NCBI GenBank assembly: GCA_008632985.1
Contig: QPGO01000067.1
Coordinates: 320,142-384,141 of the forward strand
Length of the DNA stretch: 64,000 bases
Direction of reading: 5' to 3'
From: Psammoneis japonica
Taxonomy: Eukaryota
Position numbers and translations under genes: made by a program
Notes under the pieces: generated by a model
What the model was told of the DNA's origin: nothing
Database searches by the model: none
What the model saw: only the letters and a program-made list of their open reading frames with translations
Shown here: piece after piece, positions 27,195 to 64,000 of the stretch
Numbering within the stretch: position 1 is the first letter of the stretch
Layout of the letters: each line of letters starts with the position of its first letter

Positions 27195-27899
27195 TATGAA
27201 ATACTGTAATGCAGGCTAGGTATAAGTTTTGGCAAACTTCACTCCATATCAACTCTGTGAGCTGCTTCTGTGTCTCTCTAGGTGCTAATTCATACAAGTC
27301 AAAGCAGTACTAGGGAATAGATAGAGACATACCTAGAGATTCATTACCGGTACAAGTGAACTCTAGACTCAGTCGATAGGTAACTCGAAGTGTTTCCCAT
27401 CGTTGGAACGTCTTCGTCTCCAAAAATACCAGCACAAAGTAGTCTAGGGCCCTACCTACTAGGGCCCTACTAGATAGAGTAGAGCTATCTTTGCGAGTTA
27501 CCGTAGTGCGAACGTCACCCGCTCCACATAACTCCAGAAGGGGGGGGGGGCAAGCAAGACAAGCGATCCTCTCAACTCGCGTAGAATTTGGACTGAACAT
27601 CCCATAAAGAGGACGTATTCTCTCCTCATTTTTCTCCCCACCCTTTTCTGTTTTTTGAACTTGATCTTGCCACCTTGCGAGAAACAGCATGCCGACATGA
27701 CACTGCACGCTGCTTTTCCTATTTACGCTCAAAGCTGAAAACAAACAGTGAAACAGTACCGCCAGTCCAAAGAGAGGGTGGTTGTGTGACGCGATCTCGA
27801 TTGGTCCTTCTCCTTAGTCTCTTTGAGGAGTTGACTTATCTTACGCTGACGCGAAAATCGGCTGAGAATTAGCGTGGACTGCGTGGCAACAGCGAAAAA

Positions 27900-40608: not shown

Positions 40609-43297
40609 CTATGAAGATGAAAAAGTATTTTGCTGTTGCGTTATACATGTTTGTTGAGATGATGCTTGTGAGTTTGATGTCAGCACTTCATGGATCAAGG
40701 TCATACACGTGAGTGAGTTCTGGATCAGTTTGGGTCCCCTCTGATAAAGAATTATGACGCCTCTATGGTTCGACAGCTGCAGTGGTGAACCTCGCTGAGG
40801 TGTTCCCAGTGCCAAACCAGAAACCTTGACTTGCCCTGCGAAACCTCCACGCCTTGGCTCGGGGCGGCTGTCACTTCTTCGATGAACAGCAAAAACTTTC
40901 GGTCCAAAGATAAGCCCAAGCGTGCTCATTGGAAACGTCCAGATCAGAATCGAATAACCAATGTAGCGCCCATCCTATTTCCAAAAGGGACAAAAATTGA
41001 GAGATAATTGCAAGCAAAGATAAGAAATGACCAGCATGACTTACAGTCGACACGTCATACAGCAGTGGTATCATAGGGAGGGAAAATAAGAGCACCTCGA
41101 GTTGAATCAATACCATAACGAAGATCCAGCGTGATTCCGAGAAAGCGTCATCGACATCCTTCGTTTTCCACGCCATGTAGAAAGTTAGCAGCGTCGGAAT
41201 GAGCAGGATGAACACAAGCGGAAGGATAAAAGCGATAGCTTCGTCTGACTTGCATTGCCCAATACTCTCGCCAGTTATCACATTAGTCTCGGTGCGAACC
41301 CAAGTCAGGCTATCCAGTCCTGTCCAAAGGCATAACACTACGAGGGCAGCGGCAGCGCAAAGAGCTGAAGGCCAGGCAACGTGGACCATATCAACCCTTC
41401 TCCGCGCAAACTGAAGCACTCTGTTGACACGCCAGAGCTTGCTAAAGAGACCTCCGTAAGTAAAAATGTGACCGAGGGAGGAGAGCCACGGTGTCGCCAT
41501 GCAAGCCCTGCTGAGTTGCTCTTCTGACCACCCGTAGCTTTCATCGAACGAAATTGTAATGATAGCAGAGACAGACACAGTGGCACCGAGACATATCAAG
41601 TAGAGGAAATATGGCTGGGCTGCCTTAACGTAACGGTGCTCACGATATACGTAGACCCAGACCGTAGAAGCAAGTGCCGCAGTCACCGCGATGCCGACGA
41701 AAGTAAACCCAAGTACTCGAACGCCTTTGCTCAGATAGTTCTGTTCCGGTACGTCACGAAGAAGATCTGGAGGCACAGTGCGACCATCAGCATATTCGGT
41801 GGGGTGGATAAATAGAAATGTGCCGTTGGTGTTCGGGTCTATAGGGCGAGGAATCTCTTTATACAGGAGACTGTTGTTGGGAAAGATGAAGTCTGAGGAC
41901 ACTTCTGGGAAGTAAAATATCTCTGCCAGCTCCCATGGATCATCACTACCACTAGGAGGATAGTTATTGAGGACACCCCAGATAGAGCTTTTGGGGTGCC
42001 TTGCTCCCCTCAAGCTACATTCGGTTTCGTCACAGAAACGAACGACACCCGACGCACCTGTGAAATTGACAGAGCGAATTCCTCTTACAAACGGATCAAT
42101 CGGTATATCCTCCGTACGGTTTGTTGAGGCCCAAGCTAAGCATGCTCCGATCCCTGTTGCCATAATCGCATCATACAAAAATGCCGATCCGTATTCTGGC
42201 ATGTTCTTGTAAAAGTAGTCTCCCTCAGCCTGAAACTGTCCTGGGATGCTGGGTATTGCTCGGTTAAGCTCATTCGCTTCTGCCGGGCCTCGACTCTTCC
42301 AAGAGCGCAGGAACGGATCGTGATCTTCCCCCAGGTGATAACCTTCAAAGGGTGTGATCCACACACTTCCTGTCAAAAACTCCTTGACGATGGGTTCAGT
42401 TTTGCCATAAAAAGGATCGTAGTTACCGAACCAAATCCACATGTAATCCCCATTTGTCAGTCCCATTTCAACCGCCTCTTTAGCCAGGAGCGGGATTTCA
42501 TCGACCGGTAGCTCTGGCGCAATAACAATGGTGCGATAACCGGAATCGAGAACGCCTTGAAAAGCTTTGCGAATAGTCCTCTCGTCACTGGCGGCGGGGC
42601 TTCGTAATGGCGAGTTGTAAGCAAACGCTCGATTCTCAATTTTCGCTGAGTCCAGTAAGATCTGCACAGTTTCGCGTCTGTAGGTCCCCGTCTCTGTGAG
42701 GGCATAAACAAAGGCAATGTAGTCCGTCCGACCTTTGTGCAGCAAATAGTATGAAAGCAACGTAGCACTAGAAAGGAGTTCCGGAAATATCATTGACGTG
42801 TAAGGTGACGTTTGATCAAGGGCCCGCATACTGAAGGCGCGATGAGCCGTGATTGGAAACTTGAGGGCCGCCGCCATGGTGGAGAGCTCCAATGTCGGTT
42901 GGTCGTGAAAGGCGCCGGCTACAGCGCATGGGAGCTCAGGCTGTGCAAGCAACGTTTCGGCAGCTAAATGGCTGTAGGAGCCCGTATCAAATATCTTCGA
43001 GTTTTCAAATTGTACAGGGCAATTGCGAAACTGCGCCAATTCCGAAATAACAGATGTGTTGCGACTATTGAAATGATCAATCGCCATAAGAGCTGCAGCG
43101 GCATGAGATACGCCCAAGTTGTTGCATTTTCCACACACGAAAGAATCATATGATTCATTCCCAAAGGTGAACGGAACAAACGTGAAAAGGTTGCACGAGC
43201 CATTCGCCGGAAGATTGGCTTTTACCAAGCCGATGCCGACGGCAGCAAGCAAGAAAGTGATGGTTCGAATGCCAAGATCAAATAACCTTGTCTTCAT
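40609..43297 (-). CDS. Class C (GABA-B-like) GPCR: Venus-flytrap domain + 7TM, paralogue 1
   Basis: AALMAIDHFN, YDAIMA, FTGASG, VKAAQPYFLYLICLG, LFSKLWRV, AFSESRWI. Intron after YDVST (~40977-41044); last exon LIFGPKV. C-terminal end uncertain. Confidence 0.88.
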
Positions 43298-43750
43298 TGC
43301 AACTCAAAATGACATGATCGATGCTTTGGTGTCAAACTTGATTCGTTCATGGTTTCTGCAACTTCGAGAGGGACGACCTGGATGATGATTCGTGTGAAAA
43401 CAACACGAGCGAAAAAAATGAGAACCCGTCGATCGCTGATCGCGCGCGCAATGTGACGACTGGTGACGTCGTCAGGACTTACCACTTCGTCTGTCCGACT
43501 GCCTACACTCAGAGGTGGACCTCTTTTGGTGCCTTACTTCTCCCTACTAGTAGACCCATCGAGGGAGGATTAGGAATGGCGCTACGAGAGCCAATCAGAA
43601 TTCAGCATTTGGGATTTCTACTTATAGGGGGCCCTCGGAAAGTCGAGGACTTTCCGACTAATTAATTAACATTTTTTCGGAAAATCTGACGCAATCATTT
43701 ATAGATGAGGAGGCTGAGACAACTCTCCAAAATCAGACACAAGAATCAAA

Positions 43751-46700
43751 ATGATGCGGAGACCGAAATCATCTTCTTTTCGCGCCACGGAAAAACACAA
43801 CAACACAGACTTCTGTCGCGATGAGAAAAATTCTCTCACAAAAAAACCCACGAGAGAGAAAAGTACAATCTCTACTGGTGCTTCGATGATGACCGACGTT
43901 GAAGAAGAATCAGCTCCACTAAAAGTGGCTACACAGCAGCAGCTGCATCCTTTCTTTATCAACATGGGCATTCAATCCCAGAAGCGCAAAGGCTCCATTA
44001 AAACGAGCAAAAGTCAAGCGCAGACACGTAAGAAGCGCACGCAACAGAGCGATTTAAGTGGGCGCAAGGTGCCAAGAGTAGACGACGGAACAAAGAAATG
44101 CAAGAGGTGTGAGAATGGGCCTACATACCATCATGGTCACGATCCCACGTGCAAGTTTTCGAAACGATACATGCAAATCAATGTCACCGCGGCTACGAAA
44201 GATGCAGAGCGACGGGAAAAAGAGCTCCATGAAAAGAACAATACGATCCCAGCCGCCCCACAGAAAGGAGTTTCTACCATGGAAGACCATTTTGAAATTA
44301 AAGAATCAAACAGTCGAGCTCCATTGCCTCCTCCCGGTGATTCAAACTTTTGCAAGCCCGTGAATCTGGGAGCGTCCAGTTCTACCGTCGCAAGCAACCC
44401 GAATCTTTTTGATGCCGCAAGGAATACAAAATTCTCGGTTGAGACGTTGAAAAAAGAGATTCGAGCACGAGTGAAAAAGTATGAGAACTCGGAGGAGAAG
44501 ACAAAGTGCCCGGCTGCAGTGAGTGCTCTTATCAGTTATCTGTTGGATTCTGTCAAGCCCAGATTTGATCAGGGCAGCAACACGTATCCTGTTGCTACAG
44601 CAAAAAGCACTAAGCTCAAAGAGATTCTGGAGGTCAAGGATGGTACCTTTCCGCCTGGTACAATATCGTTTCAAGTTCCCAAGGATGACTGCACTTCACC
44701 GCCTGATTATTACTACCACCAGCTGCAGGGTATGATAATATACATCGTTTGTTGGGAGCTGAATTGTCCTAACATCTACATTTCCTGTATTGACGGAGAG
44801 TGTGACGGGGAGATGATTCATGACCGTATGGACTTTACTCGATACGGTGGGGCGACGCCAATATATTGCATCAGCGGTAAGACTCATGTGGCAGTGTCAA
44901 TGTGGTATGAGTGCAACAAATGCAAGACGCGATGCAAGGGCAACGACGGTCGACTGCTACACAAGTTACCAAAAAGCCTTCAATCATCGTATCCAACTGA
45001 GCCAAAGTATGCCAGCGCAACCAACAAATGGCACCTTACAAGGGAAACCACAAGGCTATTTGAATCCTTTCTTGTCACGTACGCAAACGGCGATAAGTTT
45101 TCTCACACGCTACACCAGATGCGAGCTGCCTATTTCGAGGATCTCCAGAAAGAGTATTATCAACGAGCCAACGATGAATCAGGTGACTGGATATCTTTCT
45201 ACGAGTGGATTGGCAGCTACAGTCCATCAGGTTCTGCGATTCTTGATCTTTATGATGAATCTGGCGCATCAGAATTGACAGCTCTTGATACGTCATCATA
45301 CTCCAGATGTACAAGATTGATCCAGATGGTGGGAGCATCAATGAGCGTGGCTTCTGACCACACTTTTCAAATTCTCAAGAATTATACAAAGAAAGGTGGT
45401 GGAGCGGCGGCAGGACTATTTACTATGTGCAACGAAAAGGGACAGGTTGGAGTTGCTTGTCTGACACCGACGTTGGAAGCAAAAGATTTTGCTCACGCAG
45501 CCGAGCAGTTCGCGAGGCGAAAGAACGTGCGTCCAAAAATCCATTACAGCGACACTTGGCCGAATAAGTCATCGTTATGGAAGGTGTTATTTGGAGGTTA
45601 CATAGTATGCCGTTTGGGTCTCTTTCACTGGATGCACCGTATTGTACAGACACTTCGAAAAGACCACGTCGACTATCATCAAGCAGTTCGGGACCTTCGA
45701 GCTACAGTTTCATACACCGAGTGGTCGGACCGCCAAGCAGTAATACAAGCCCTCAAGGATGGAACTCTCAATGGCAAAAAGCACACGGATGCAGAAATAG
45801 ATGAGATCATCCATTCTTCCAGGTGGAAGCACTACTCAGAATACATGCGCATTTGGAGGCATCCGCTGGAAAAGAGAATCAGCTTGCTTGACGATTGGCA
45901 CGCCCGATATAAGTGTACGGCTTCTGATGGATCGCGACCCGCTGGGGGACGTCTTGATCCAAACAGTGGTTTGACACTCTTTACAAGTGATACAAAGGAT
46001 GCCGTGGCAAATGGAAGAGAAACATCCAAGGGATTGGACGTTCCAGTGCCAAAGTCAGAGCAGTACTGGCCAGTGGCTCCATCGCTCCGTTCAAGAGCGA
46101 AGCTGGTGAAGTGGCGGACATTACTCGGGCCGGAGTCAAAGTTGGAAAAGGCTCATGATTCGCTGGCTCATTATGGGAACTGTGGGATGCGAGATTCATT
46201 GATGGATTTGATCACTCTGGAAGGTTTGGTTCTCTACAACGCTACAATTGAAGAAAAGGAACGCGTTGAACGAATGAATCCAGAGACTCGAGCAAAGATT
46301 CCATACGATTTTCGGGGTGTGGTTACTCATCGGAACGTGCTCAATCTAATCGAAATCAACAAGCTAGCAACAAAGAAGGGGAAGAAAGCGCCCTATCCAG
46401 ATGTAAGGGAACTCGAGGCGGACACCGGCGAGCGTTTTCTGTCCAAGTACCTGCGGGAGCAGAATGCTAGAAATGAAACAATTACTCCACACCCGGAGAC
46501 GGATCGATGTATGTGCAATATCTGTGGGACAAAGCCAGTGACAAATCCATACAAGCGAACAACAAGATCAGTTGTTGGAAACGGCAACGATGGAGAAACT
46601 ACAGCAGTGGCAAGCGTTCGACCGGCTAGTGGTTTTGTGGAAATTGTGGCGGCTCCTCAGGTGGGGGTTGAATCTATGTGTGTGAATGACACACCATTAC

Positions 46701-47014
46701 TTAACGCGGCTCACGTTCGAGTCGAGGAGCAGTTCAACATGTTGCAAGCCGTGAGAAGCGCCCTGTCACAACAAGTTGCCATTGCATCGAGCATGAGCGC
46801 ATCCCTCCCATCTGTTCCATATCAAGTGCAACCGGCTCTTTCAAATCTTAATGATCTGATACGGGATCAGAGGAAGCAAGACATTGATCCATACTGTTGT
46901 CCTGTCTTCCTACAATACAAGCTGCAGCAAAGCTACAGTGTGACGGGGTGCCGACCAAGAGGTCGACCAGCGCATTCTAAGGATTGCCCAAAGAGACAGC
47001 AGTCAAGGAGGTAG
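43751..47014 (+). mobile_element. Intact 1087-aa putative DDE transposase (MULE-like catalytic signature; family not assigned)
   Basis: Intronless ORF with Cys/His clusters (CKRC..HHGH..C; YECNKC), SDHTF..NEKGQV, YSDTWP, LGLFHWMHRI (xxH motif), LEKAH and a C-terminal CC..GRPAH..C. No TIRs or TSD found. Confidence 0.65.
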
Positions 47015-48564: not shown

Positions 48565-51189
48565 TTACATCTTTTCGGGCGCGTCAGGCTCTCTTGGATA
48601 CGTTTGGACCCCTTCTGATTGGGAATTGTGACTACTAGTATGACTGTGCCTCACAATCGAGCCTGCGGAGGTCGAACCTTGCTGAGGAGTCCCCTCGTTG
48701 GTCATTCCGGATATCTTGACGGCACCTGTGAACCCCCCTCGTTTCTTCTCGCCCTGAGCGTCATTTCTTCGATGGACAGCGAACACTTTCGGGCCAACTA
48801 TAAGGCACAATGTGCTCATTGGGAACGTCCAGATCAAAAGCGAATAACCAATGTATCGTCCGTCCTAAAGGAAACAGTTTCAAAATGAAGTCAGATCTTC
48901 AATCGAAGCACGTAGATTAAGAATATTTTGTCAACTTACGGTTGAAACGTCGTAAAGCAAAGGTATCATTGGGAGAGCAAACAAGAGGACCTCGAGTTGA
49001 ACCAGTACCATTACGAAGATCCAGCGTGATTCCGAGAAAGCGTCATCGACATCCTTCGTTTTCCACGCCATGTAGAAAGTTAGAAGTGTTGGTACGAGCA
49101 GGATGAATACAAGCGGAATGATGAAAGCGATAGCTTCGTTCGACTTGCACTGCCCAATACTCTCGCCTGTTATAAAATTAGTCTCGGTTCGAACCCAGGT
49201 GAGGCTATCGAGCCCTGTCCAAAGACCCAACACTAGGAGGGCGGCGGCTGCCAACACCGCCGAGGGCCAGGCAACGTGAATGACATCAACCTTGCGCCGA
49301 GCAAACTGCAGAACTTTGTTAACTCGCCAGAGCTTGCTAAAAAGACCTCCGTACGTTAGAATATGTCCCAGGGAGGACAGCCACGGTGTCGCCATGCAAG
49401 CTCGGCTAAGTTGCTCTTTTGACCATCCGTAGCTTTCGTCGAACGAAATTGTAATAATCGCGGAGACTGACACTGTGGCACCAAGACAGATCAAATAGAG
49501 AAAGTGCGGTTGAGCTGCCCTGACATAACGATGCTTACGGTAAATAAAAACCCAGACCGCAGACGCAACTGCCGTAGCCATTGCAATTCCGACGAAAGCT
49601 AAACCAACCGCCCGAACGCCTCGGCTGAGGTAATTCTGTTCAGGTGTGTCTCGAAGCAGATCTGGAGGCACGGTGCGACCATCAGCATATACAGTGTCAC
49701 TAATGTGCAGAAAAGTACCTTCGGGGTTTGGGTCTTTTGGAGGTGTAAAGTAATCGTACAGAGTGCCATTCGGAAAGATAAAATCTGTTGACACTTCCGG
49801 TACGTAAAAAACCTCCGCCAGAGTCCAAATGTCCTCGATATCGATCCCGGGTGGGAAGTTGTTGAGAATACCCCAGATTGATGTTGCCGGGTGCCTTGCT
49901 CCCCGCAAGCTACATTGCCTTTCGTCGCAGAAGCGAACTACGCCAGACGCACCGGTGAAGCGAGCAGAACGAATTCCTTGCACGAAGGTGTCGATAGGTA
50001 TGTCGTCCGTTCCGTTTGCAGAAGCCCAAGCCAAGCATGCACCTATCCCAGTAGATATGACGGCATCGTACACGAACGAAGTCCCCCATTCGGGATATAA
50101 CTTGACAAAAAAGTCATCCTCTGCTTCAAACTTTCCTGGAAAGTCAGGAACAGCAAGGTTGAGCTTTTCTACTTCAGCTGGGCCTTGACTCCACCAAGCT
50201 CGTAGGAATGGATCTTTCTCTTGACCCAAGTAATATCCTTGCAACGGAGTTATGAAGATACTTCCCGCCAGGAACTTTCTTATTGAGGGATCATTGTCTT
50301 CGAAATATGGATCGTAGTCTCCAAACCAAACCCACATGTAATCCCCATTTGTGAGACCCATATCCACTGCTTCCTTCGCCAGTAGCGGGATCTCAATAGT
50401 CGGAAGCTCCGTTGCAACAACAATGGTACGATATCCAGAATCAATAACACCTTGCAAAGCTCTTCGAATAGTCCTTTGGTCACTGGTTGCTGGGCTAGCT
50501 AACGAATTATACGGAAAAGCTTGGTTATCAATACCATGCTCATCCAGCAAGATTTGGACTGTCTCGCGTTTGTAAATACCAGTTTCAGTGAGCGCGAAAA
50601 CAAACGCTACAAAATCGGTTCGACCTTTGTAGAGCAGATACCTTGTCAGTACCGCGGCACTCGTGATGATTTCCGGGAAGACCTGCGAAGTGTATGGTGA
50701 CGTTCGATCAAGTGCCCGAAGACTGAAAGCCCTGTAAGCAGTGACTGGGAACTTGAGCGCCGCAGCCAAGGTAGATAGTTCCAAAGTTGGCTGGTCATGA
50801 AAGCCCCCTGCTACAGCGCATGGGGTTTCAGGCTGTGCCAGCAATGTCTCCGCAGCCTTATTTGTATAAGAACCGGTGTCGAATATCTTGGAATTCTCAA
50901 ACTGCACAGGGCAATCGCGAAACTGCGCAAGTTCTGGGACAACAGAAGTGTTGCGACTATTGAAGTGATCAATCGCCATAAGAGCTGCAGCGGCATGGGA
51001 CATACCAACATTGCCACATTCACCGCAATCAAAAGAATAATACGGTACTTTTCCGAAGGTGAAAGGTACAAATGTGTATAGGTTGCACGAACCATTTCTT
51101 GGTAAGATCGCCTCTACACCGATAAGCGTGCATATTCCGATAATCGTTCGCATCACTTGGCACCGCAACGACGACTTCATTGCCGGCAT
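48565..51189 (-). CDS. Class C (GABA-B-like) GPCR, paralogue 2
   Basis: Collinear with 40609-43297 and highly similar to it. Same intron position after YDVST (~48867-48939); last exon ends APEKM*. Confidence 0.9.
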
Positions 51190-51929
51190 TCTTTCTTTGA
51201 CAGATTGAAGATGTTTTCCTTCTCACTCTCGCCAACTTTCTTGTACCGTACTTACAGTACAGTACAGTACAGTAGGGCTACCGGTACTACTGTGCTCGAG
51301 TCGGACGAATCATTCGACTGAATGAATGACGTCTGCTGTTTTTGTCATTTTGCTTCTTTTTGTGCTTTCTTGTTTTTTGGATTTTTCGCTCTCAAATGGT
51401 CGAATTGTCACAGCTTTGACCTTCAGACTAACCAAGGGACTGACGCTTCAACAGCCCATGACATTTGGTGCTGCTGTCAAGAGCATCATTTCTTTTTAAT
51501 CACACCAAGAATGAGTGTGGCTGTGCAGGTTTTTCACCACACCACTTTTGTCTCGTCATGGCGATCATGTCTCTTGGCTCTGCTTGCTGGCAAAAAAATG
51601 TTTGGGAGAGCAGCCTGCATCTCTTTGTCTGGAGTGCCCATGTCTTCACACCTCCAGCCACTCTGGCTGCAGTGTGTCATGTCATGAACAACACAACACC
51701 ATGAGAAGATGACAATCTCTCTTGCACCAATGCAGAGAAGGCCAGCACAGCAACGAGCGGCTCTTTCTTTAGGAGGTTGCTGATCATCAGGCCGTTCGGA
51801 AAAGGCAACCCCAGTCCATGGGTGCAACAAAGTCACTGTGGCTGCTGCTGTTGCTGCAGCAGTTGAGAGTGTGTGTTTTCCAAATGATGAGCATGTTGTG
51901 TTGATTCCAAGCCGTTCCCCAGTCGCCCA

Positions 51930-52130
51930 AGTTGGCAAAACTCACGAAAGTTGACAAGTTTGCCAAAGCAGACAAAGTCACCAAATTTGACAAAGTTGCA
52001 AACTTGCCAAAGCTGACACCAAAGTCAACAATTTTGCCAAAGTCACCGAAGTTGAGAATTTTGCCAAAGTTGACAAAGTCGCCAAAGTCAACAATTCTGA
52101 CAAACTTGCCAAAGTTGACAAACTCAAAAT
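51930..52130. repeat. Degenerate ~9-bp-period tandem repeat
   Basis: Units such as aaagttgac, aaagtcaac, aaagtcacc, aaagtcgcc, aattttgcc and aaacttgcc, repeated about 20 times. Confidence 0.8.
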
Positions 52131-55100
52131 GACAGATGTGTCAACTGCCCTCTCTGTTGCTCTCTGACTGCTGCTTTCTCTGCTGTCTGCTGATGCACTC
52201 TTGGTCCAGCTCTGGTGGTTGGCTGTGGTGCAAGCCATGAGCACCAGACCTCAAACTGGAGGAGCACCAGGTCTGAGGAACATGGAGTTGGAGCTCTGGT
52301 GGCTGAAGAGCTGCAAAGGGTGGTGGCATGGGCTGCAACCAAGAACTCACTCTCTCAACTCATGAATGTGCAGTGCAACATTGATGTTGGAACATTGGGG
52401 TGAGAGGTGGTTTTCACAGGACAGACAATGTTGCAGAGCAAGACATGCCAACAATTGCAGACAATGTTGTGGTGAATTTGCACTTGCAACTCAGGTTGAG
52501 TTGCGAGTCTTGTGCTCACTTTTTAGCATCTGAACCCAGCCAACACACAGCAGTGGTCAATGGCACAGGGGATGCATTTGCAAGCAATGCAGTGAGTTCA
52601 GGGTTGGTGAGACTAAACAGGTGCCAGCTGGCAAGCTGTGAAACTCCAGTGCAGAAGCTGAAAAGTCACAGCATGACACTCAAAGGAGTGACATTGTTCT
52701 GAGGCAAAGATTGTTGGGTTGCTTCCTTTGACAAAGATTTGTGTGACAACACTGATCCAGTGTAGACTGCAGTCTGTCTCACAAATTATGGTGGACAGGA
52801 GAGGAAGTTCCCAGAGATTGTAAAAACAACACACACCAATGCACACATGTTGTGTGATGTTGGCATGTCCTTTGCTGGCAACAAGGGTGGCCAGACTTTG
52901 CAGAAAAAGCCATCTTCCAACAAGTGGTTGTGCCTTTGGGAGATGCCATGAACCCCAAACAGTGTCATGGGACATGAGCAATTGGTGGCATCTGGAGTGG
53001 CCATGTTCTTGCACTCATGTTGACTCCACAAGTGTGCAACAAACTGGGGGCACAAACACTGTGGGTTGTGGTGGTGCCAGTGGTTGGATTGGAGGAGCAA
53101 GCGCACAAGAAAGAAGCTTGCAAGAACATTGGGAATGCTGGTGGCAAACACATGTCATCAAAATGGGCTGGAAATCCTTTGTCATGTGATGGTTTTCATC
53201 TTCACAGTGTGTCATTGATTGTCAGCTACCTTCATCATCACAATTCACAGACATGAGAAAGGGCAGTTCTTCTTTGTTGAGAGAGTTCATGGCTCAGGAA
53301 ATGACACGCACAACTCAGCACACATCATTTTTTGGGGTGAGTGCATTGTTGCTGGTGCTGTCATCATGCATCACATCCATCACTGTGTGCTGGAACAAGT
53401 CATCATTTGGCGTGACAAGGACATCATGCTGCAGTGGTTGTTGTGGTCAGTTTGCAGTTGTGCGCCAATGTCTTTGTTGCAAAAATGATGGCAAAGAGTG
53501 AAAAATGACAACCTGGAAGGAAAGAAATTGATTGAAGCAAGGAGGAGGGTGTTGGTGAAAACATCTCACAAATTTTTGCAGTTTTTGTTTTGAAAGTTCA
53601 AGTCCATTCTTGACAGAATCTTTCATTGCACTTCTGACCTCTCACCCATGAGAGAACTGCATCTACAACATGTTCTCTCTCTTGAACAAATGAACAAACA
53701 AAATCTCTCTCTCTCTCTCTCTCAACAAGACAATCCATTGACAAATTTTTGCACCTGTGATTGCACTCTCCACAGGTGGCAAAATTTCTGCAAAATTGAC
53801 CATGGTGATCACTTTGGATGTGACTTTGAATGATGTTCTGATGCTGCTGGTTCACTTTCAGTCACAAATCTGGCATTGCCAAAGTTGTCATTTGAGGTTG
53901 GCAGTTGATTTTTCCAACAGTCATGAATTTGCAATGTTTTGCTTTGTGCCCTGGCATCTTGTTCAGAGCTGAGTTAGCTCATTTGTTTGTTGGAAGAACT
54001 TTGGCTTGATTGCCTGTTGCCTGTTTTCTTTTTGTGTTTCTGTTGCATTTGTCTCTTTGTTGCATTGGGCACCACACAACCCAGCCACCAACCCATTGTT
54101 TGCATGGCAACAGCGCACCACTGTTGCAACTCCCTTTGTCCTTGTTGCTTGACTGACAACAAACAACAATGAAAAGACTCTCCTTTCAAAATGAACTTCT
54201 CATTGAAAACCAACCCACTTTTGATGGACAGCACAGCTGCAAACTTCAATCCTTTCCCTTTTTCCATTGTCAATTTGTCATGCTTTGTCAGTTGATCATT
54301 TGTGCTTCTTGTTGCTGCAAATGCTCATCAACTGGTTTGACCTCATTGTCATGTCACAATTTGACAAATTCCAACATCAACCTAGATCACACCAGAATGG
54401 TTCAATCTGCACTTCATTCAATGCCACTTTCTTGAAGCTGTTGATTGGCAACAAATGTGCTGCAAGCACTTTTTGGGGTGCCAAGTCATCTGGGCCAACA
54501 TGGCTGCGATTTGATTTTGTGTTTTTGTTTTGGTCCATGCTGGCAAATTGCACTCTGTTGTGGCTGTGGGGCAGTGGATTTCTGCCAGTGAACCACCAAA
54601 TCATGTCAACTGTCTGTGCAGCTCTTCTTTGTTGCTCAGTGGATGTGCCAGCTTTGTCTCTTGCAGAAGATTGTAGAGGGTGGTTCAGAAGGTGCAATGC
54701 TTGCTCAAGTGCTGGCACCAATTTCTTGCTTGTCAGAGAGAAGGACCAGCACACTCCATGCACCTGACTCAAGGGACCCAGACTTCATGAGTGGCAGGTA
54801 CAACCAAGGCTTTGGTTGCAGAAACCTCATTTGACATTGAGACTTTGCACAAGGCCAGGCATGGATGATTGACACCACATTGCAACAACTGTGTTGTCAA
54901 TGAGATTGGCCACAAAGACTTGCTCTTGACAATGCAAAGCAAAAGCATGTGGTGTGCAATCAACAAAGCCCAATGTCACATTTCTGACTCACATGCCACC
55001 AACCAATCCTCCCACAAGATCCATTCTTGCTGCTTGAACTTTGGATCAGGGCAAATGGAAGCGGGCACTTGCCTGGTTGTTGCAGCTCTTCTTTGTTGCT

Positions 55101-55284
55101 TCCATCCAACAAAGAGAAACTTGTTTCAAAAATGCCACTGCAAATTTATCCACCATCCTCCTCAAGCCATTTTGCCGCTGCACACAAAGCAACTCAATGT
55201 TTCTGGCATTTGTCCCAGTGCATTGCTCATTGAAGTTTTGCTTGCCCGCTGCTGCTCAGCAATCAAACCTTTGAACAAGCAACC

Positions 55285-55760
55285 CTGGAGTTTGGAAATT
55301 CACATCTGCTGTTGCTGGGAACAAGGTGACAGTTGTCGCTCAGGTTGGCTGGCACAGTCATGAGGTCATTTCACTCTGGAGCTTGGAAATTCAAGTCTGC
55401 TGCTGTTGCGCACAACATGCCATGGGGCCACAACATTTTAAGACCAATCTTGCAATGCCCAACAACAGCTCTTGAAGCATCACTTGGGGTCTGCCAAAGA
55501 CCACCACAGTCCTCAGCTTGCTGTCATCAGGTTGGTTGGCACTGTCACAGGGTCTTTGGATTCTTGGGAGTTTGAAAACTCAAGTCTGCTGCTTTTGGGG
55601 ACAAGGTGACATGGGGCCAGCCACAGTGCCACATGATCAACCTCACAATGCTCAAGCACAGCTCTTGAAGTCACACCTGTCCCACCACCAACACCACCAG
55701 TGCCCCCTCAGATTGCAGCTGCCAGGTCAGATGGTGGTGTCATCATGGGGTCCATCTGGA
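55285..55760. repeat. ~190-bp repeat family, cluster 1 (2-3 degenerate copies)
   Basis: Core ctctggag(c/t)ttggaaa(t/c)tcaagtctgctgct..catggggcca..ttgcaatg..cctcagcttgc..caggttgg, shared with 60960-62110. Confidence 0.8.
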
Positions 55761-57394
55761 ACACCAATGATCTTTTCGAATTGCAGCCAGGCAAATTCTT
55801 TGTTTGATCCAAGACTGTGCTGATTTGTCCAATCTGCATTTGTGAAATGTTCAATGACAAACATCCACATTCCTGAAGTCAACATTTTATTTGCCGCATG
55901 GACAAAACTGCAATGTGGTTTGAGCTCATGTCAATCCCTGAGTGAAGTGTTGCCCACTTTCTTGGATCAAAATCTCTGCAGTCATGCATCAAGTTTGACT
56001 CTTCTTTGTTCCAATTTTTTTTCTCGCTGTCATTGCCATTGTTTGTTTTTGGGCAATGCCTCTCACCTTGTTCTTCTTCATTTCTTTTGCAGCACAGCAT
56101 CTTTTGGTCCTGCTCTTTGCCAAGTGATTGCTGCACCATGTCATTGATGTTTGCTTTCCTCATTGCATTGGCCTTGTCATTTCTCCAACATGCTTTGCCA
56201 GGGATGCAGTCTGATGGTCTTGTTTGTCCTTGGTTCAAACATTCTGGGTTTGGTTCTGTGTGTGGTCTCAGCCAGCATGTTGCTGGCAACTGCCTTCATT
56301 CCATGGGTCCAACCAAGTCTTTTAGTTGTCTGCATTGCAGACAACATGGTCTTGACTCCAAAAAGCAGGTGTGCAGCTTCTGCTGTTCTCCCTTTGCCAG
56401 GAACACAGTTGCACTCAAGAGCTGAAACATCCTCCCTGTCCCTGTCTGGTTGGACATTGGTTTCTTTGCTTCCTTGGGATGTCCAATGCTGACACAGACC
56501 CAACAACATTGCCCTGCATCTTCAGAAGCATGCTCCCCGTCACAAGAAGGAGGAAGCTTCCCTTTGATGCTCTGCTGGCATTTCAAACACTGCACCACTT
56601 CATTCTTCTCTCCAGACAATGACACATTTGGCGACAATGACAACAACTCAATGTTTGGTTTTGCCAATGACAACCCCCAGCCCCCTTCCTGAAGAGTCCA
56701 TTTGGACCCAGATCCACCTCCTCCCATGCACTTCAACAATGCTTCTCCTGTCAGCTCCCCCTCCACTGGAAATGGTCTGCAACCCCCTCTGTCAGATGCT
56801 CTGGTTGATTGCACACTGCTGCCAATCTAGCCACTGCCAATGCAGCCGCTGCAAATGCCCACCAATTTGTCTTCTTTGCCAATGATGGTGTGTCTGCCCT
56901 TGGAGAGGAAAGCCCTTTGGATGTTCCTGAGCATCATTGCAGTTGATTCTGTCAATGGCACTTTGGGTCCTCCTTTGATGCCACATCCTGCAGAAGACAC
57001 AACTTCTCCTTCTGCAAGCATTGGCTTGGCAATGCTTCCTTCCTTGTTTGATCATGAGAATCCACTGGGACCGGTGTGCAGGCATGCCCCTGATGAGGAC
57101 TTTGACATCCCTTTGGTTTGTTCTTCACCCAGCATGGCACCCATGGTTTGGCTGTTCCATCTCTGTTGTTGGTCAGGTGCTGCAATTAACTTCATCAACA
57201 AAGTCATGAGAATGGTCCATGAAGAGTGAGCATGCCAAAAAAAGATTGGATTTGACAAAGCCTCCAACTGCTGTGGCAATGAAGCAACTTCTGGAGCTGT
57301 TCCCCAATGTCCCTCTCCCCCACACTGCTGTGCAAGTGAACCCACAACAGAAGAAAAAGACAAGACCAAAGGCATTGAACAACTTGCACAAAAA

Positions 57395-57830
57395 GTGTTG
57401 GATCTCCTGCCTGACTTTCCCCTGAAAGATGCTGCTGCAAAGAGGATTGCTCTGCAGACAGCAGTCCATGCACCAGCAACATGTTCCAGATCTGCATGTT
57501 CCAGATCTAACTTCTGGTCAAAGGGGGAAATGCACCTCAATTTTCTAGAGACAGATTTGAGTCATGGATGCAAATCATTTGCAATCTTTGTTGTGTTCCT
57601 TGATGACACAACTCAGGACAATGGCACCATTGAAATTTGGCCAGACAGCTGCAATGCCCCATGTCAAGCAAGAAGGAGTGTGAAAGACAGCAGGCAAGGT
57701 TGGGTTTGAAAAAAAGCTTTTGGCAGGTGCAGCAGGTTCTGCCTTTGTTTTTGAAGCCAGGATGTTGCACTGTTTGTTGCTGAACAAAACAGAGTTGGGT
57801 TGGAAGAACATGGTGTGTCTGACTCACAAT
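57395..57830 (+). pseudogene. Decayed PhyH-like 2OG-Fe(II) dioxygenase
   Basis: GEMHLN (HLD if CpG decay is reversed), FVVFLDDTTQDNGTIEIWPDS, then after a stop and frameshift GSAFVFEARMLH. Confidence 0.55.
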
Positions 57831-59449
57831 TTTGAATCAGCCAAGGTGCAGCAGTGCATTGTTGTAAAAATCAAGGATTGATGAAGGCACTCACACTTGG
57901 CAATTGTGTCAAACAATGTTTCAACCAATGGTGACATTGTGTCACTGCAGATGACAAATGATGATTGGCGTCTGCCGCAGATTTGTGCAAAGAGAGTCAT
58001 CAATGGATCAACACAGATTGGCAGTGGCGAGCTTTGCCAGCAAAGGATGAGGAACACCACACCACTCTAACAAGATTTTGGGGGTGAGAATTTGCATTTG
58101 ATGTGCTTTGCACAGTCAATCATCATGAAATGCCTTGGTGCCATGATGCCAGCTCTTTTTTGTGTGCTTGTGCAGGAGATGCACATTGAAGCTGCCACCC
58201 CATGACAGATCCATGGGACAGGCACAGGAACAAAACAGGATTCATGGCTCCACTCATGGGCACAGCCACAAAACATCCCATCAAGTGCAATCACAATGGC
58301 TCCCTCTGGACATTTGTTTGTTGTTGGCACCTCCTCAAGGCAACTTTGTGTTGTGTTTTCATCAAACAGGAACCATCCATTGCAGTTGTTGAAAAAATCT
58401 TGGTGTCAAAACCACAGTGCAAACCATGAACTGAGTCATCTTCATCAAGAAAGGAGCTGTTGATCAAAGTGGGGCACCTTTCTGGTTCATTGGGCCAAAT
58501 GCCAGCACACCACTTGCTGCCCAACTGGTGGCAAGGATGACGCAGCTCTCAATGCTGCAGGCCCAACAGTTGGGAAAAAGCAGATGACAAGAAGCAATTG
58601 CCAAACCAGCATGACCACCACCAGCATCAATGAAACTGAAAGTGCTGTTGAGCCCACCACCAAACAGGGATGGGTGGCCCAAAACCTTGGCACCTGAGTT
58701 AAAATTGACCATCCCTCCATGTGACTCTGCATTGCCACCAGCAACATGACCAAATTGATGCTCAATCTCCAGCATGTGATGGCAGAGCACAGGGAATGTG
58801 CTTTCTGGCAGTTGTGGTGGTTTGACACAACCACATCCATTTGGATCAACAACCGTTCTTTTTGGGTGATGGTGGCAGCAGTTGGAGACAGAAGCATTTT
58901 GTTTGTTGGGACAAATGAGATTGTGGTGCATTGGTGGTGCGAGGGCATTGGAGTGTGGAGGGAACAATCAACCAGGTTGCTGAAAAAAATTGTGGGAAGA
59001 GTTGCAGATTTTAAACAAATGAAAAATGCAGACTGGCACATGCAAAAATGGCTCACATTGAAGCACAATTCAAAACAGTGGAAGGTTTTGAAAATTTTAA
59101 ATGTCAGGTTGGAAACAAGCTCAGAAATCTGATGCAGAGCCCTGCTCAAATGAACCTGGGAGAAGCAAGCAACAGCAGAATGAGAGAAGATCACCAGCAA
59201 AGTGCACTCATTTTGTGACTTCTTGTGTCACAAACCAGACAGAACACAGCAAACAGTGCAACACAAGAGCTGCCTGTTGGAAAGGGAGAGATGATGGAGG
59301 AGATGGTTGTCACAGGAGCAACAATGCAAGATGGTGGGAGTGCAACATCAAGTGGCAAGCCAGGTTGGAGAGAGCAGGACAAAGACCAACAGTTGTGTCA
59401 ACAAGTTGTGGTTGGCCATTTTGGCACATGCTGCATCACAGTTGCCATG

Positions 59450-60420
59450 AGTCCTGTGGTGGTGGGATTGTTCAACACACAAACAAATGAGCATGGGGAG
59501 CTCAACCGACTCCAGTTGGTGAGCAGAGACTCCATTTCTGTTGTGACTCCCATGGAGGAATGTCATGTGATGGATCAAGCTCCAGCAGTTGGCAGGAAAT
59601 TGATGGGGTCTATGTTGATGAGGGTGGTTAATGAAAGTGTGTGGCTGCATTGCAAGTTCATGACAATCTTCAACAGAGAACTTGCTGCAGGAGGAGAGTG
59701 CACAAAAATGGCTCTGCAGGAGTTGAGGAGCATGGCATCTGCGCTGGAGGCATTCTGTGGTGCACAGAAAGAGGCATTCAGGAAAACCTCAACCACAAAA
59801 GGAACAACATGCAGGACAACACAAGGAGGAAGATGACAGGCAAGCCAAACAGTGCAGGTGTTTGACACTCATGAACAAGATTGTTCAACGGGTCAGGTGT
59901 TGACTCCTTTGTTTTTGTCAAGGCAGCTGCTGCTTTGGAGGGGTCACTGGTTCAGTGCAAAGAGTTCATTGAGGGCAGGGCTGACAAAGACAAGTGCATG
60001 TGGTTCTTGGAAATGGCAGCACCAACTGTGGTGGGCCAAGCACAGTTTGGCAGAAGCATGATGGATTTGCTCCAAGAGTGGCTCACCAAATCATTGGAGG
60101 CCGTTTGCTCTGCTGGCACACAAACTGCTGTGACAAGGCAGTTGACATGACAGAGAAGTTGGAGAATGACACCAACATTGCATGGCAAAGAAAGTGGACA
60201 GCAGAAGATGCTAAACCTGCAAAGTGCACAGCACAGGAAAAAGGGGAATCAGCTGAGAGCAGCCAAGGATGGAGCATGGATGGGATCAAGAAGTGCAACA
60301 AACTGTGTGAGTGGGTGATGAAAGACCAAGAGGAGAATGAAGGACTTGGTGCATGCCAGCTCAAGGAACAGAGGCAAGAGAAGGCAAACTCTTTCAAGGA
60401 GGCAGAGAAGAAATGAAAAA
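59450..60420 (+). pseudogene. Decayed ORF of unknown, probably transposon-associated, protein
   Basis: Consecutive protein-like fragments ending AKCT..GWSMDGIKKCNKLC (AKYT..GWSTDGIKKYNEL if the mutations are reversed) and a Glu/Arg-rich tail. Confidence 0.35.
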
Positions 60421-60959
60421 GAGAGGAGAACAGGGAGGAGAGAGAGAGGACAGATGGGCTGCACTGGTGATGGGAGAGGACCTGCCCTTGCAGCCAGTGG
60501 CTGGTGCCAGCAATGGTGCGGAAGCAATTGCAGCCATGGCAACAACACAAACTGGTGCATGAGTGCAAATTGCAGCAAACAATGAAATCCAGCAGAACAT
60601 GGAAAAAACAATGAGGCAAACTGCAAGGCAATTGTCAGTCAAGAACAAATGGCAGTTGCAACATTTGCTTTTAACACAATGATGCAAAGAGACAAAATGC
60701 AGAAAGACATTGCAGGTGAAGATGGTGGATTGAAAGTGACAAGAGATGTGATGAAGAAACTGGGAGCAGCAAATGACAAAAAGGGTTGAGATTGAAGTTG
60801 TGGGCAAGAACATTTGCACTTCAAAGTGGGGTGCAATTTAAAATCGAAAAGAAGCTCACAAACTCAATTGGTTCTCAACTGATGTTTGAAGAAAGACTTG
60901 GCTTGCAAGTTCACAACAATCTGAAATTGGAGTCAAGAAACACCCAGATTGTGACAGGT

Positions 60960-62110
60960 GGTCAGACACAGATTGTTGGCATCCCAGATGTCCTTTCACT
61001 CTGGAGCTTGGAAGTTCAAGTCTGCTGCTGTTGGAGACAAATTGACACGGGGCTGCAACACCATGACATCAACCTTGAAATGTCCAACCACAGTTCTCAA
61101 AGTGTTGCCTGGGGTCCACCAGAGATCCCCAATGGCTGGTGCTGTCATGGTTTTTTTTCACACTCTGGAGTTTGGAAGTTCGAGTCTGCCATTGACAGGC
61201 ACACATGACATGGGGCCACAACACCTTCAAGATCAACCTTGCAATGTCCAGCCACAGTTCCCACAGTGTCACCTTGGGTCCACCAGAAATCACCAGTGCC
61301 CTCAGCTTGCAGCTGTCAGGTTGGCTGGTGCTGTCATGGGGTCCTTTCACTCTGGAGTTTGGAAACTCAAGCATGCTGTTGTTGCGCACATTGTGGCATG
61401 GGGCCACAACACTCCAAGATCAACCTTGCAATGTCCAACTGCAGTTCTTAAAGTCACACCTGGGATCTGTCAGAGATCACCAACACCCTCAGCTTGCTGT
61501 TGTTGTCAGGTTGATTGGTGCTGTCATGGGGTTCTTTTACTCTGGAGTTTGGAAAAGTTCGTGCTGCTCCTGTTGGGGACAACATGACATGGGGCCACAA
61601 CACTTCACGACCAATCTTGCAATGTCCAGCCACAGTTCTTGAGGACACACCCAGGGGGGCACCACCAGATTGGTTGGCACTGTCATGGGGCCCTTTCACT
61701 CTGGAGTTTGGCAGCTCAAGTGTCTGCTCCTGTTGGGGACAATGTGACATGATTGAGCAACAACGCCGCAACACCAACCTTGAAATGTCTGGCCACAGTT
61801 CTTTGAGCAAGTGTTGCCTGGGGTCTGCTGCCAGAGATCACAAATGCCAACAAGAGCTTGCTGTTGTCAGGTTGGTTGGCACTGCAATGAGGTCTTTTCA
61901 TTCTGCTGGAGTCTGCCTTGGAAGTTTTCAAATCTGCCCCTGTTGGGGACAAGGTTGCATGGGTCCACAGCACACTGCAACATCAACTTTTCAATGTCCA
62001 ACCACAGTTCTTAAAGCACTGCCCTCAGCCTGCTGCAACTTGTTGGGTGGGTTGGTGCCATCATGGAGCCACTTTGCTCTGAGGCTGGGAAGCTCAAGTC
62101 TGCTTTGCTG
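60960..62110. repeat. ~160-200-bp tandem repeat, cluster 2 (about 7 degenerate copies)
   Basis: A ctctggag(c/t)ttgg core recurs near 60999, 61163, 61350, 61540 and 61699, with more diverged copies near 61905 and 62078. Confidence 0.85.
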
Positions 62111-62405
62111 TCTGTGCCAGCCCACTGGAAACAAGAGTGCACTGACATGGGCAGCCATTTGTCAGGGAAAGCTGGTGTTGGCAGGAGGTGCTGCAGTTGC
62201 AGCACCCCCATGTCTCTCGGGCCTGCTGCTCTGGCTCTTTGCTGGCACATGTCCAGCACAATGGGTTGTTGTTGCAAGTGTGTGGGTTGGATTGACAGAA
62301 AATGAAGATGACTGGGTGGAAGAAAACAATGACTCCTTGCTGCTGTCTAAACAGCAGATGAGTCTCCATGCAGAGACCGTCACAGGAGCCGAAAGACTGG
62401 TGTCG

Positions 62406-62537
62406 TGACATCGGTGCTGCTGTTGTCATTCTTGTGAGCCGTGTGGCTTGAAAGCAAACCACATCGCGCGACGCGTGCGGAACTAAGAGCACACACAATT
62501 GTGTGTGACAAACTAAAATCTTGTTCAAATCCTGTCA
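62406..62537 (-). repeat. Probable 3' LTR of the Copia element
   Basis: Follows a polypurine tract GGGGAG on the minus strand (62538-62543). Termini TGACA..TGTCA form an inverted repeat. CpG-rich sequence stops close to this end. Confidence 0.6.
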
Positions 62538-64000
62538 CTCCCCAGTTTGCTTGAGGGGTCAACAGCGACAGATTCGAAGTCGGATTGGTTGAAAGCCTCG
62601 GGATCGAAGTTCCAAAACATTAGAGGACGAAGGAGGTTCCAGATTTGGGAGCAACCCCAGTGCTTGCTGAGGATGTCAGCCGGGTTGCGGGAGCCTTGGA
62701 CAAAATGAAACTCGAGGAAACCGGAGGCAATCGCCTCACGCACACGATGGAATGAGAGGGCGGTGTGTCGCGTGTGCAACTTGGAGTGCGGGATGGCAGC
62801 ACTGTCCACAACCGACTTGTTGTCCCCAAACATGCAGCATGTTTCACGAATGGGAACGCCAAGGCAATGCAAAGTGATGCGCAGATCAATGATCTGCTCG
62901 ACACACGTCCTTGCGGCAACAAACTCGGATCCATGCGTGGCAGTCTCGACTGTTGCTTGTTTCTTAGAGAACCAATCAGCCGGAAACTTGTTGAGAAAAT
63001 GGAGGATGCCGGTGACAGAGCGGCCAGTGAGCATGCAATGGAACAAGTTCGCATCGATGCAGTGCGTGGTGGTGACGAACTTGCCAAGCGGCTCGGGCGC
63101 ATCTTGTGGGAGCAGCTCTTCTACCTCCCCATGCACGGATTGAGCCCAATCGCACACGGGCTCAGGGAGGTCCGAACAGTCGGGCTCCTCGGTGTGCACT
63201 CGGAGGGTGCCATGACGCATCTTGGAGAGGAATCCGCAGATGCATTTGGCACGGTCTAGGTGGCCTTGACGGGGCACTGCACGGAAGCCAGACAGGGACA
63301 TGACAGCTGCAGCAATGTCAATGCGACCCAGAGATGTGGCCCATTGCAGGGATCCAATCAAGGATTGGAGTTGGTGGATGCCATCCGGTTTGAGTGATTC
63401 AGAGGTGTCGAGCTCAGGGTGGTCACCCTTGTCAAGGGGTGAAAGCACATCAGTGCAGGGCTTCTCCCCAAAGAGGCATGTGCAGTTGTCAACCATGTGC
63501 TCAATGCACTTGCGGGGAGCAAGGCACAGGGTGCCGTCTGGGTCACAGGTGAAGTCGCAGCCAAGATGGAACTCCAATGGTCCAGCGCCCTTGAGCTTGA
63601 ACTTGCACTTCTCCATGAGGGTGTCTGCAAAAGCCTGGGGGTCCTTCATGGTGAAGGCCAGGTCGTCCACATGCACTGCCACGTGTTCGCAGTGGTCACC
63701 ATTCCTGCGCAGCCAGATGTCGGGTTCAGCTTTGCATGGAAAGAAGCCTTTGGCACGCAAGCAATCGGCAAAGCGTTCATGCCATCTGAGGCCGGAGCTG
63801 CGGAGTCCGTACAAGGCCTTGTGGATGACAAGGATGTGTCCTTCCAGGTCGCCGAACTCGGGGCCTGCCACGATGCACAGTTTCTCCTTGGTCGCAGCTT
63901 CAAGGCAGGCATTCCCAATGTCAGTGGCCCAGGTCTCTAGTTTGTTGAGTTCGGCCAGGAAGATCATCATTGCAGGCCATGGAGAGACACCACTCCGGAA
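62525..64000 (-). mobile_element. Ty1/Copia (diatom CoDi-type) retrotransposon RT-RNaseH, truncated by window end
   Basis: DIGNA(C)L, KALYGLRSSG, AV(H)VDD, DANL, RSVTG, SKKQATVETAT(H)GSEF, GDNKSV, FHRVRE, NPADILSK. 481 aa open, with only one Tyr. Confidence 0.95.

Follow-up and report, generated by a model that had tools for sequence, protein, structure and literature searches.

Near-complete loss of TpA from repeat-filled blocks of a diatom contig and a probable relation to TpA hypermutation of mobile DNA

The TpA-depleted blocks and their content

The window described here, i.e., the whole stretch of 64,000 nucleotides that was analysed, is part of contig QPGO01000067.1 of the diatom Psammoneis japonica (assembly GCA_008632985.1, positions 320,142 to 384,141 of the forward strand). 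Its middle 47 kb consist of ordinary genes. These genes are flanked on either side by a block in which the dinucleotide TpA has nearly disappeared and TpG and CpA are in large excess. The left TA- and CG-depleted block covers positions 1–4000 and was absent from an earlier description of the window, made from its letters only and referred to below as the sequence-only reading. The right block starts at position 51289. Its old part, which is depleted of TA and CG and contains no recognisable coding sequence in a Pfam scan, extends to 62377, and the last 1.6 kb of the window (62378–64000) contain a copy of a Ty1/copia retrotransposon. Blocks, their shoulders and repeats are given without a strand throughout.

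All identifiable block content is retroelement or repeat. In the left block, a relic of a Ty3/gypsy RNase H is located at 1330–1581 on the forward strand (PF17919, RT_RNaseH_2, E 3.9e-11), followed on the same strand by a relic of the integrase zinc-binding domain of the same gypsy-type element at 2172–2396 (PF17921, Integrase_H2C2, E 8.3e-05, a match below the curated cut-off). The right block contains a 9-nt/45-nt tandem repeat at 51947–52122 and an array of a 164–187-nt satellite at 60997–61651, both detected by Tandem Repeats Finder. A dispersed copy of this satellite at 55340–55524 was identified by repeat comparison within the window. The reverse transcriptase (RT) and RNase H of the copia copy are encoded at 62525–64000 on the reverse strand, in a frame of 491 codons that is open and runs off the window (PF07727); this frame is TA-converted and has largely kept its CpG. 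None of the 91 stop-to-stop open reading frames (ORFs) of at least 70 amino acids in 51322–62598 matches a Pfam family. The sequence-only reading had the depletion extend across a retroelement, gene relics and satellites. The copia RT, the gypsy relic and the satellites are indeed affected, whereas the gene relics were not recovered among these 91 ORFs. The same reading had also called the process chromatin-domain-targeted. This is not shown, since all identifiable block content is repeat DNA and targeting of repeats is here indistinguishable from targeting of a domain. No tRNA or Rfam family that could serve as a barrier element at the edges is present anywhere in the window.

The blocks are rich in long but spurious ORFs, because TAA and TAG vanish together with TpA. 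Six-frame translation of block DNA (1–4100 and 51290–64000) yields 120 stop-to-stop ORFs of at least 70 amino acids in about 15 kb, with a maximum of 297 amino acids. They overlap on both strands, and gene callers would predict proteins there. TA-free relics that keep long ORFs are thus prone to be mis-annotated as genes, and the GC content gives no warning.

In the region 51289–62200, 35 TpA are observed, as compared to 762 ± 22 expected from 200 mononucleotide shuffles. This corresponds to 3.2 TpA per kb, in contrast to 40.4 per kb in the genes. The dinucleotide rho values of this region are 0.05 for TA, 1.81 for TG, 1.90 for CA and 0.09 for CG. Those of the left block, up to about position 4000, are 0.07, 2.00, 1.72 and 0.24, respectively, and rho TA amounts to 0.59 in the genes at 4.2–51.2 kb. 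Calculated in 2-kb windows, the observed/expected ratio of TpA is 0.07 at 1–4 kb and 0.04–0.10 from 52 kb to the window end, with values of 0.46–0.80 in between. The TG+CA ratio is 1.6–1.9 inside the blocks vs. 1.0–1.3 between them, and that of CpG is 0.19–0.29 at 1–4 kb, 0.06–0.09 at 52–62 kb and 0.57 at 62–64 kb. When three sub-blocks are considered separately, each has a rho TA of 0.05–0.10 with TG/CA values of 1.5–2.0. The longest TA-free run measures 754 nt in the right domain and 243 nt in the genes. Within 51289–64000, 44 TpA were counted, of which 30 (68%) are in a YTAR context, as compared to 16% among the 1897 TpA of the genes. The TpA depletion with TG/CA excess is hereby confirmed, in agreement with the sequence-only reading, which had estimated about 45 TpA in 12.7 kb, roughly 70% of them YTAR. 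The GC content is unchanged (0.45–0.49 in the blocks as in the genes). TA, CG, TG and CA together constitute 0.239–0.246 of all dinucleotides, which is constant across all four regions and is predicted when only transitions occur within pyrimidine–purine steps.

Both block edges fall within approximately 150 nt, and each lies just upstream of the 5′ end of a normal gene. The left block ends at about 4000–4024, and from position 4024 onward the density is 28.7/kb for TA and 64.5/kb for CG. At the right block, TA density is 54.6/kb in 50300–51288, the final TpA of this dense region being at 51288 and the next one at 51429. The last normal sequence before this edge is a (TACAG)n-like microsatellite with intact TpA (51244–51288). 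The abrupt edges that had been described for the right block are therefore real on its left side, while its right edge lies beyond the window end; the left block likewise continues past the window start. In the 16.7 kb of block DNA, comprising the gypsy relic, the unclassifiable satellite block and the copia copy, conversion is about 95% and no unconverted island is present.

Conversion of TpA in the copia copy, its separation from CpG decay and its flank preference

The copia copy allows a comparison between mutated DNA and its family. Its frame was aligned at the protein level with 33 relatives, and conserved columns were defined against 31 relatives of 61–69% identity. The frame contains 24 Cys, 25 His and only 1 Tyr among 491 residues, as TA-free sequence is unable to encode Tyr. 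Of 14 conserved Tyr columns, 7 have become Cys, 4 His, 1 Leu and 1 Phe, and a single Tyr is kept. The catalytic box of the RT, which is YVDD in the family, reads HVDD. By contrast, 257 of the 287 remaining conserved columns are kept, and Arg is replaced by Cys or His at 4 of 21 columns. A comparable loss of Tyr occurs in none of the 33 aligned relatives. Homology searches will lose motifs that carry Tyr.

At the codon level, 79 usable copies from metagenomes and the window were aligned, with 75 ordinary copies serving as controls. Where the family majority has TA, the window copy is altered at 19 of 20 sites (12 to TG, 4 to CA), vs. a control mean of 17%, while its non-TA dinucleotides change at control rates. 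Outside TA and CG sites there is no excess of A>G changes (22 A>G+T>C vs. 19 G>A+C>T). TpA thus was converted to TG or CA in DNA that once encoded protein, and the spectrum of copy against family carries the TA-specific excess on which the sequence-only reading had made its case depend. At majority sites other than TA and CG, the copy has diverged by only 0.100, in comparison to a control mean of 0.136 (standard deviation 0.037). Conversion of about 95% of the TA at a background divergence below that of the controls leaves too little time for ordinary decay to register, and implies, on the basis of this comparison, that the rate of TA conversion would exceed the background rate. The frame is still open, since TA>TG/CA changes remove TAA and TAG and create no stop codon except from TAA. 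Altogether, there is good support for a mutator that changes A:T to G:C specifically at TA, acts on repeat blocks and is distinct from CpG decay.

CpG decay follows its own course. The copia copy contains 52 CpG per kb, with 4.9 TA per kb, whereas the core of the right block has 3.8 CG per kb and likewise 3–4 TA per kb. From conversions of about 95% and about 25%, respectively, the TA process in the copia copy is roughly estimated to exceed CpG decay in speed by a factor of about ten. A further observation concerns a shoulder of 0.8–1.0 kb at each block edge beside a gene 5′ end; for comparison, CpG amounts to 55–65/kb in the genes. In the left shoulder (2989–4000) TA is gone and CpG half lost (TA 4.0/kb; CG 22.7/kb vs. 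9.0 in the core and 64.5 on the gene side), and in the right shoulder (51289–52100) TA is gone and CpG partly kept (TA 3.7/kb; CG 23.4/kb vs. 3.8 in the core). Either methylation, unlike the TA process, tapers toward the promoters, or the DNA of the shoulders is younger.

Relatives in other assemblies lead to the same distinction. In a survey of 240 copia family proteins from many assemblies and 80 metagenome loci, Tyr content was ordinary in 236 of the 240 proteins (mean 0.043, standard deviation 0.007). Three proteins are Tyr-poor outliers, one of which (P0322) carries the full signature. The loss of Tyr to Cys or His recurs in four relatives from other assemblies, i.e., P0322, L071, L079 and L021. 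The environmental copia copy L071 (1–2766) reaches a rho TA of 0.02. L021 and L079 are approximately half converted (Tyr to His or Cys at 10 of 19 in L079) and, together with P0273, represent partly converted copies. In P0322, Tyr has become Cys or His at 11 of 15 columns, with Arg kept at 16 of 17, and in L021 Tyr is lost at 6 of 20, with CGN at 13 of 15. The reverse case is L070, with Tyr intact at 16 of 18 columns; of its 15 CGN, 5 have become TG/CA and only 2 are still CG. The copia copy of the window and these three relatives show that the TA and CpG processes are separable in both directions, as the sequence-only reading had held in setting TA loss apart from CpG decay. Strong CpG loss (rho CG 0.19–0.23) with near-normal Tyr is more widely seen in L070, L004 (Tyr kept at 18 of 20) and L080, the last of which lies outside the alignment. 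Judged by their sequence, these hosts or copies would undergo methylation-type decay in the absence of the TA process.

The CpG loss is most simply read as deamination of 5-methylcytosine in methylated repeats. LTR (long terminal repeat) elements of diatoms are CpG-methylated according to the accessible part of Maumus et al. (2009; PMC2806351), which fits the CG>TG/CA half of the signature. This half has no flank rule, as all four flank classes of CpG are lost alike, and it explains the rho CG of 0.09. It cannot, however, remove TpA.

In contrast to CpG loss, TA loss depends strongly on the neighbouring bases. With the genes as reference, retention in the two old blocks is 44% for YTAR, but only 5% for YTAY, 3% for RTAR and 0.6% for RTAY. 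At single-base resolution, retention is 0.80 for TTAA, 0.44 for CTAA/TTAG and 0.16 for CTAG, while TA sites with a 3′ C or T on either adenine are retained at 0.06 or less. The products are skewed accordingly, with gains per kb of 19.4 for RCAR and 14.1 for YTGY vs. 7.9 for RTGR and 6.0 for YCAY. If TA is converted to TG on the strand with a pyrimidine 3′ of the A, and CG is split evenly, this bookkeeping reproduces all eight product classes within approximately 2.5/kb. The rule in this DNA is that A>G occurs in the order TAY >> TAG > TAA, which may equally be read as T>C in RTA, and that TTAA survives. The same rule accounts for a mild ApT loss and GpC gain in the blocks. It recurs within the copia copy (RCAR+YTGY +18.1 vs. 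RTGR+YCAY +1.6), where it also explains the prevalence of TG over CA. Moreover, it predicts that a Tyr codon following a pyrimidine becomes only Cys. Indeed, 9 such codons became Cys and none His, in comparison to 4 Cys and 4 His after a purine (Fisher p 0.029). AA shows no depletion (rho of 1.22 for the blocks vs. 1.14 for the genes), so that the target is TA, not WA in general. In L021 and L059, numbers are too small to assess the rule.

Possible mechanism, alternatives and known systems

The closest known system is that of the chlorarachniophyte Bigelowiella natans, in which mutation accumulation lines revealed TpA>TpG/CpA hypermutation of integrated nucleocytoplasmic large DNA virus (NCLDV) and virophage sequences (Mettrop et al., bioRxiv 10.64898/2026.01.13.699255). 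In the parts of this preprint available to us, the viral regions are reported to mutate at approximately 6e-7 per site per generation vs. 3.5e-10 elsewhere, and the de novo mutations in the Illumina-sequenced lines are A>G/T>C in 210 of 211 and in 20 of 20 cases, all of them at TpA. The same source describes 124 TpA-poor, CpA+TpG-rich clusters, with RT and DDE domains enriched among TpA-poor coding sequences, and its authors propose a candidate ADAT-type, ADAT2-like deaminase and a defence function (10.64898/2026.01.13.699255). The sequence-only reading knew of no published description of such a process; this no longer holds, as the preprint shows the same signature experimentally. A diatom report of TpA hypermutation was not found in the literature, including a search by term of Maumus et al. 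(2009) and of a 2025 preprint on diatom transposable elements.

Both systems share, as far as the available preprint text goes, the near-exclusive A>G/T>C change at TpA, a GC-ward direction opposite to the usual mutational bias, and a restriction to clusters made up of mobile or foreign sequence that leaves the genes of the host unaffected; here, these clusters are the copia, gypsy and satellite blocks. They differ in host, a rhizarian in the one case and a stramenopile in the other, and in targets, which are integrated NCLDV and virophage in B. natans but LTR retrotransposons and satellites here. They also differ in extent, as the B. natans NCLDV region has a rho of 0.45, while the blocks of the window are saturated at 0.05. 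The flank rule TAY >> TAG > TAA and the independence from CpG decay are likewise particular to the window, at least in comparison to the preprint text, in which "flanking", "trinucleotide", "context", "CpG" and diatoms do not occur; its supplementary per-mutation tables may hold flank data. By this analogy, the window is best classed as a saturated case of the B. natans phenomenon in a second lineage. A targeted TpA mutation process of this kind is quite probably real. New with respect to B. natans are the flank rule, the retrotransposon and satellite targets, the independence from CpG loss and the several environmental copia relatives.

The process could then be pictured as follows. Repeat-filled, presumably silenced blocks would be subject to A>G hypermutation specific to TpA (T>C on the other strand). 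The adenine would need a 3′ pyrimidine, in such a way that TAC and TAT are fully converted, TAG slowly and TAA hardly. Both strands are hit, apparently at a rate far above that of background decay. The process may act in the chromosome once an element has integrated, and it may serve as a defence directed against silenced or foreign DNA. It would be self-limiting, because TG and CA are no longer a target, and TA would hence never become CG. With regard to chemistry, an enzyme that deaminates adenine to hypoxanthine, a base copied as G at replication, is a tentative proposal, possible rather than probable. The natural substrate of TadA and ADAT enzymes is U33-A34, and bacterial TadA reads UAC, which is the closest match to TAY. 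To our knowledge, no link between these enzymes and chromatin or repeats has been described.

Action on the chromosome is favoured, though not proven, by three observations. First, TG and CA outcomes are found within a single copia element (12 and 4 on its coding strand), as anticipated by the sequence-only reading, which had both strands affected. An editor of one-strand cDNA or RNA is insufficient to produce both. Secondly, CA<->TG at a shared site is the main difference between copies of the satellite and makes up 63 of the 268 double differences, as compared to 18 for the second most frequent class. This points to ancestral TA or CG having been converted separately in copies that already existed. 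Thirdly, the three parts of the blocks are all saturated.

Several points weigh against this interpretation. The CA<->TG differences between satellite copies could also stem from a repeat-bearing element that was edited once before insertion. L071 does not follow the flank rule; Tyr after a pyrimidine has become 5 His and 5 Cys in this copy, and YTAR is gone too, so that the rule is not a general property of TpA hypermutation. With a stricter column set, the flank test on Tyr codons yields p 0.077. Among the three sequencing runs listed, which belong to one study and include none of RNA, only run X1 holds the stretch (0.89 of the sampled words, taken half from block and half from genes), and this run may be the source sample itself. 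No enzyme candidate was found among 73 of the 75 ORFs of at least 120 amino acids in 3900–51300, in line with the sequence-only reading, which saw no such enzyme in the window. Deaminase, glycosylase and TET/JBP-like families were absent from these 73 ORFs. Finally, the DNA-active ADAT2 of amphioxus prefers TCG and GAA, as well as hairpin loops, not TA, according to the accessible part of the report (PMC10354150), and ADAT2 was accordingly set aside as a candidate by context fit.

An alternative with the same duplex signature places the lesion on the thymine. The T of 5′-RTA-3′ would be enzymatically modified, e.g., to a 5-hydroxymethyluracil-like base, and mispair with G to yield T>C. The flank rule reads equally well as R-T-A, sequence by itself cannot assign the strand of the lesion, and in dinoflagellates 5-hydroxymethyluracil is enriched at TpA and TpC. 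However, no TET/JBP-like ORF occurs among the scanned ORFs of the window, and among the matches listed in a literature search for 5-hydroxymethyluracil with diatoms, all are dinoflagellate-centred by title. Thymine-side chemistry is therefore considered rather unlikely.

A second alternative is editing of the retroelement RNA or cDNA before integration, after which dead-on-arrival copies accumulate in an unmutated chromosome. APOBEC3 edits retroelement cDNA and ADAR repeat RNA, in a strand-asymmetric way and before integration, with ADAR favouring a 5′ U and a 3′ G. These systems resemble the window in the hypermutation of retroelements, driven by a deaminase in their case, and the 5′ U of ADAR corresponds as well. 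It fits such a scenario that all identifiable block content is retroelement or repeat, that partly converted copies such as L021, L079 and P0273 exist, and that each cDNA strand passes through a single-stranded stage. The window differs from these systems in that both strands are converted, even within one element, the preferred 3′ neighbour is a pyrimidine, and satellites are among the targets. In addition, three unrelated parts are saturated at about 95%, with no unconverted island in 16.7 kb, and the B. natans signature arises during culture, by the preprint's account, in DNA-virus sequence that had already been integrated. Editing before integration is improbable on these grounds.

Very little probability is given to a sequencing artefact, in which a long-read basecaller or polisher would take modified bases of heterochromatin (5-methylcytosine at CG, an altered A or T at TA) for their transition counterparts. 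The two kinds of change are transitions and affect possibly modified sites, and X1, as the only run holding the stretch, may be its source. Symmetric miscalls should, however, leave mixed states including TA as well as new CG, whereas RTAY is found at 0.07/kb and RCGY at 2.0/kb. The loss of Tyr to Cys/His is furthermore present in four other assemblies (platforms unstated; the contig name of L079 is presumably SPAdes-style), and L039, L040 and L075, which share the accession prefix of L071, are not among the low-TA loci. The B. natans precedent, moreover, rests on Illumina data.

An equally small probability is assigned to a repair or polymerase bias in heterochromatin. DNA polymerase eta makes A>G changes at WA, and thymine glycosylases can fix T:G mismatches toward C:G. 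Polymerase eta had been put forward in the sequence-only reading, but the absence of AA depletion (rho 1.22 vs. 1.14) contradicts it. Repair of T:G toward C:G is evidently not dominant, as CpG is lost in the same DNA, and the rate excess over background is large. Lastly, selection or an ancestral composition avoiding TA, for which nothing speaks beyond the composition itself, is refuted by the HVDD box in place of YVDD, the loss of 13 of 14 conserved Tyr, the ordinary Tyr content of 236 of 240 family proteins and the codon alignment, and retains practically no probability.

The TpA hypermutation preferred here can be regarded as a counterpart of RIP (repeat-induced point mutation) in Neurospora and other fungi. 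In both, transitions in repeats at one dinucleotide inactivate transposons and leave sharp compositional edges. Fungal RIP, however, changes C to T mostly at CpA, creates TpA and lowers GC, whereas here TpA is destroyed (rho 0.05), CA is enriched (1.90) and GC stays at 0.45–0.49. RIP is triggered by duplication, while a pair of paralogous receptor genes in the window is unaffected, possibly because its members are too diverged to count as repeats. It is conceivable, if somewhat short of probable, that a DNA editing system dedicated to the erasure of TpA and guided by chromatin or repeats, as an "A-branch" counterpart of RIP, is common to diatoms and chlorarachniophytes, two distant lineages of the SAR (stramenopiles, alveolates and rhizarians) group. 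It would act independently of cytosine methylation, kill retrotransposons before ordinary decay registers and rely on an enzyme that is a natural adenine (or thymine) editor of nuclear DNA. Its flank preferences would be lineage-specific, with TAY in P. japonica and none in the host of L071; the sequences of these two copies already indicate that the preference of the TA process differs between hosts.

If real, the process makes diatoms the second eukaryotic lineage with TpA-directed A:T>G:C hypermutation of mobile DNA, with P. japonica as the first diatom, and extends what was a curiosity of one species to a genome-defence strategy that may be widespread among marine algae. Candidate enzymes will have to reproduce the flank rule in vitro, and a natural adenine editor of nuclear DNA would be of interest to base-editing research.

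Genes between the blocks

The genes in the middle of the window have a normal composition. The best named relatives of an S28 peptidase encoded among them are all diatom proteins (Attheya 67%, Cylindrotheca 62%, Nitzschia 59%). A glycosyltransferase family 28 gene (3909–5018, forward strand, PF03033) faces the left block with its 5′ end. On the other side, the 5′ end of a family C G protein-coupled receptor (GPCR) gene (48931–51222, reverse strand) lies approximately 70 nt from the right block. This gene encodes 7tm_3 and ANF receptor domains in a Pfam scan, the latter being the ligand-binding domain. It forms a tandem pair with a second gene of the same domain composition, approximately 7.9 kb away on the same strand (40871–43303). 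Both paralogs, which are 71–88% identical in segments, have a normal TA observed/expected ratio of 0.67–0.80, although one of them abuts the block. The paralog was considered as an unmutated reference for the start of the right block and rejected, as homology stops inside the coding region (43204 <-> 51096) with no diagonal upstream.

No Pfam family was detected at E 1e-4 in a 1098-codon ORF of normal composition at 43718–47014 on the forward strand. Three domains are divided over two adjacent ORFs on the reverse strand, i.e., bestrophin (6851–7606 and 7868–8614), LCAT (13107–13796 and 14346–15662) and an aspartyl protease (22919–24622 and 24520–24993), which would fit short introns in genes that are otherwise poor in them. 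A 171-nt tandem repeat (29921–30256, 1.9 copies, 90% match) is located within a TPR-containing ORF of 1598 codons at 27873–32669 on the forward strand.

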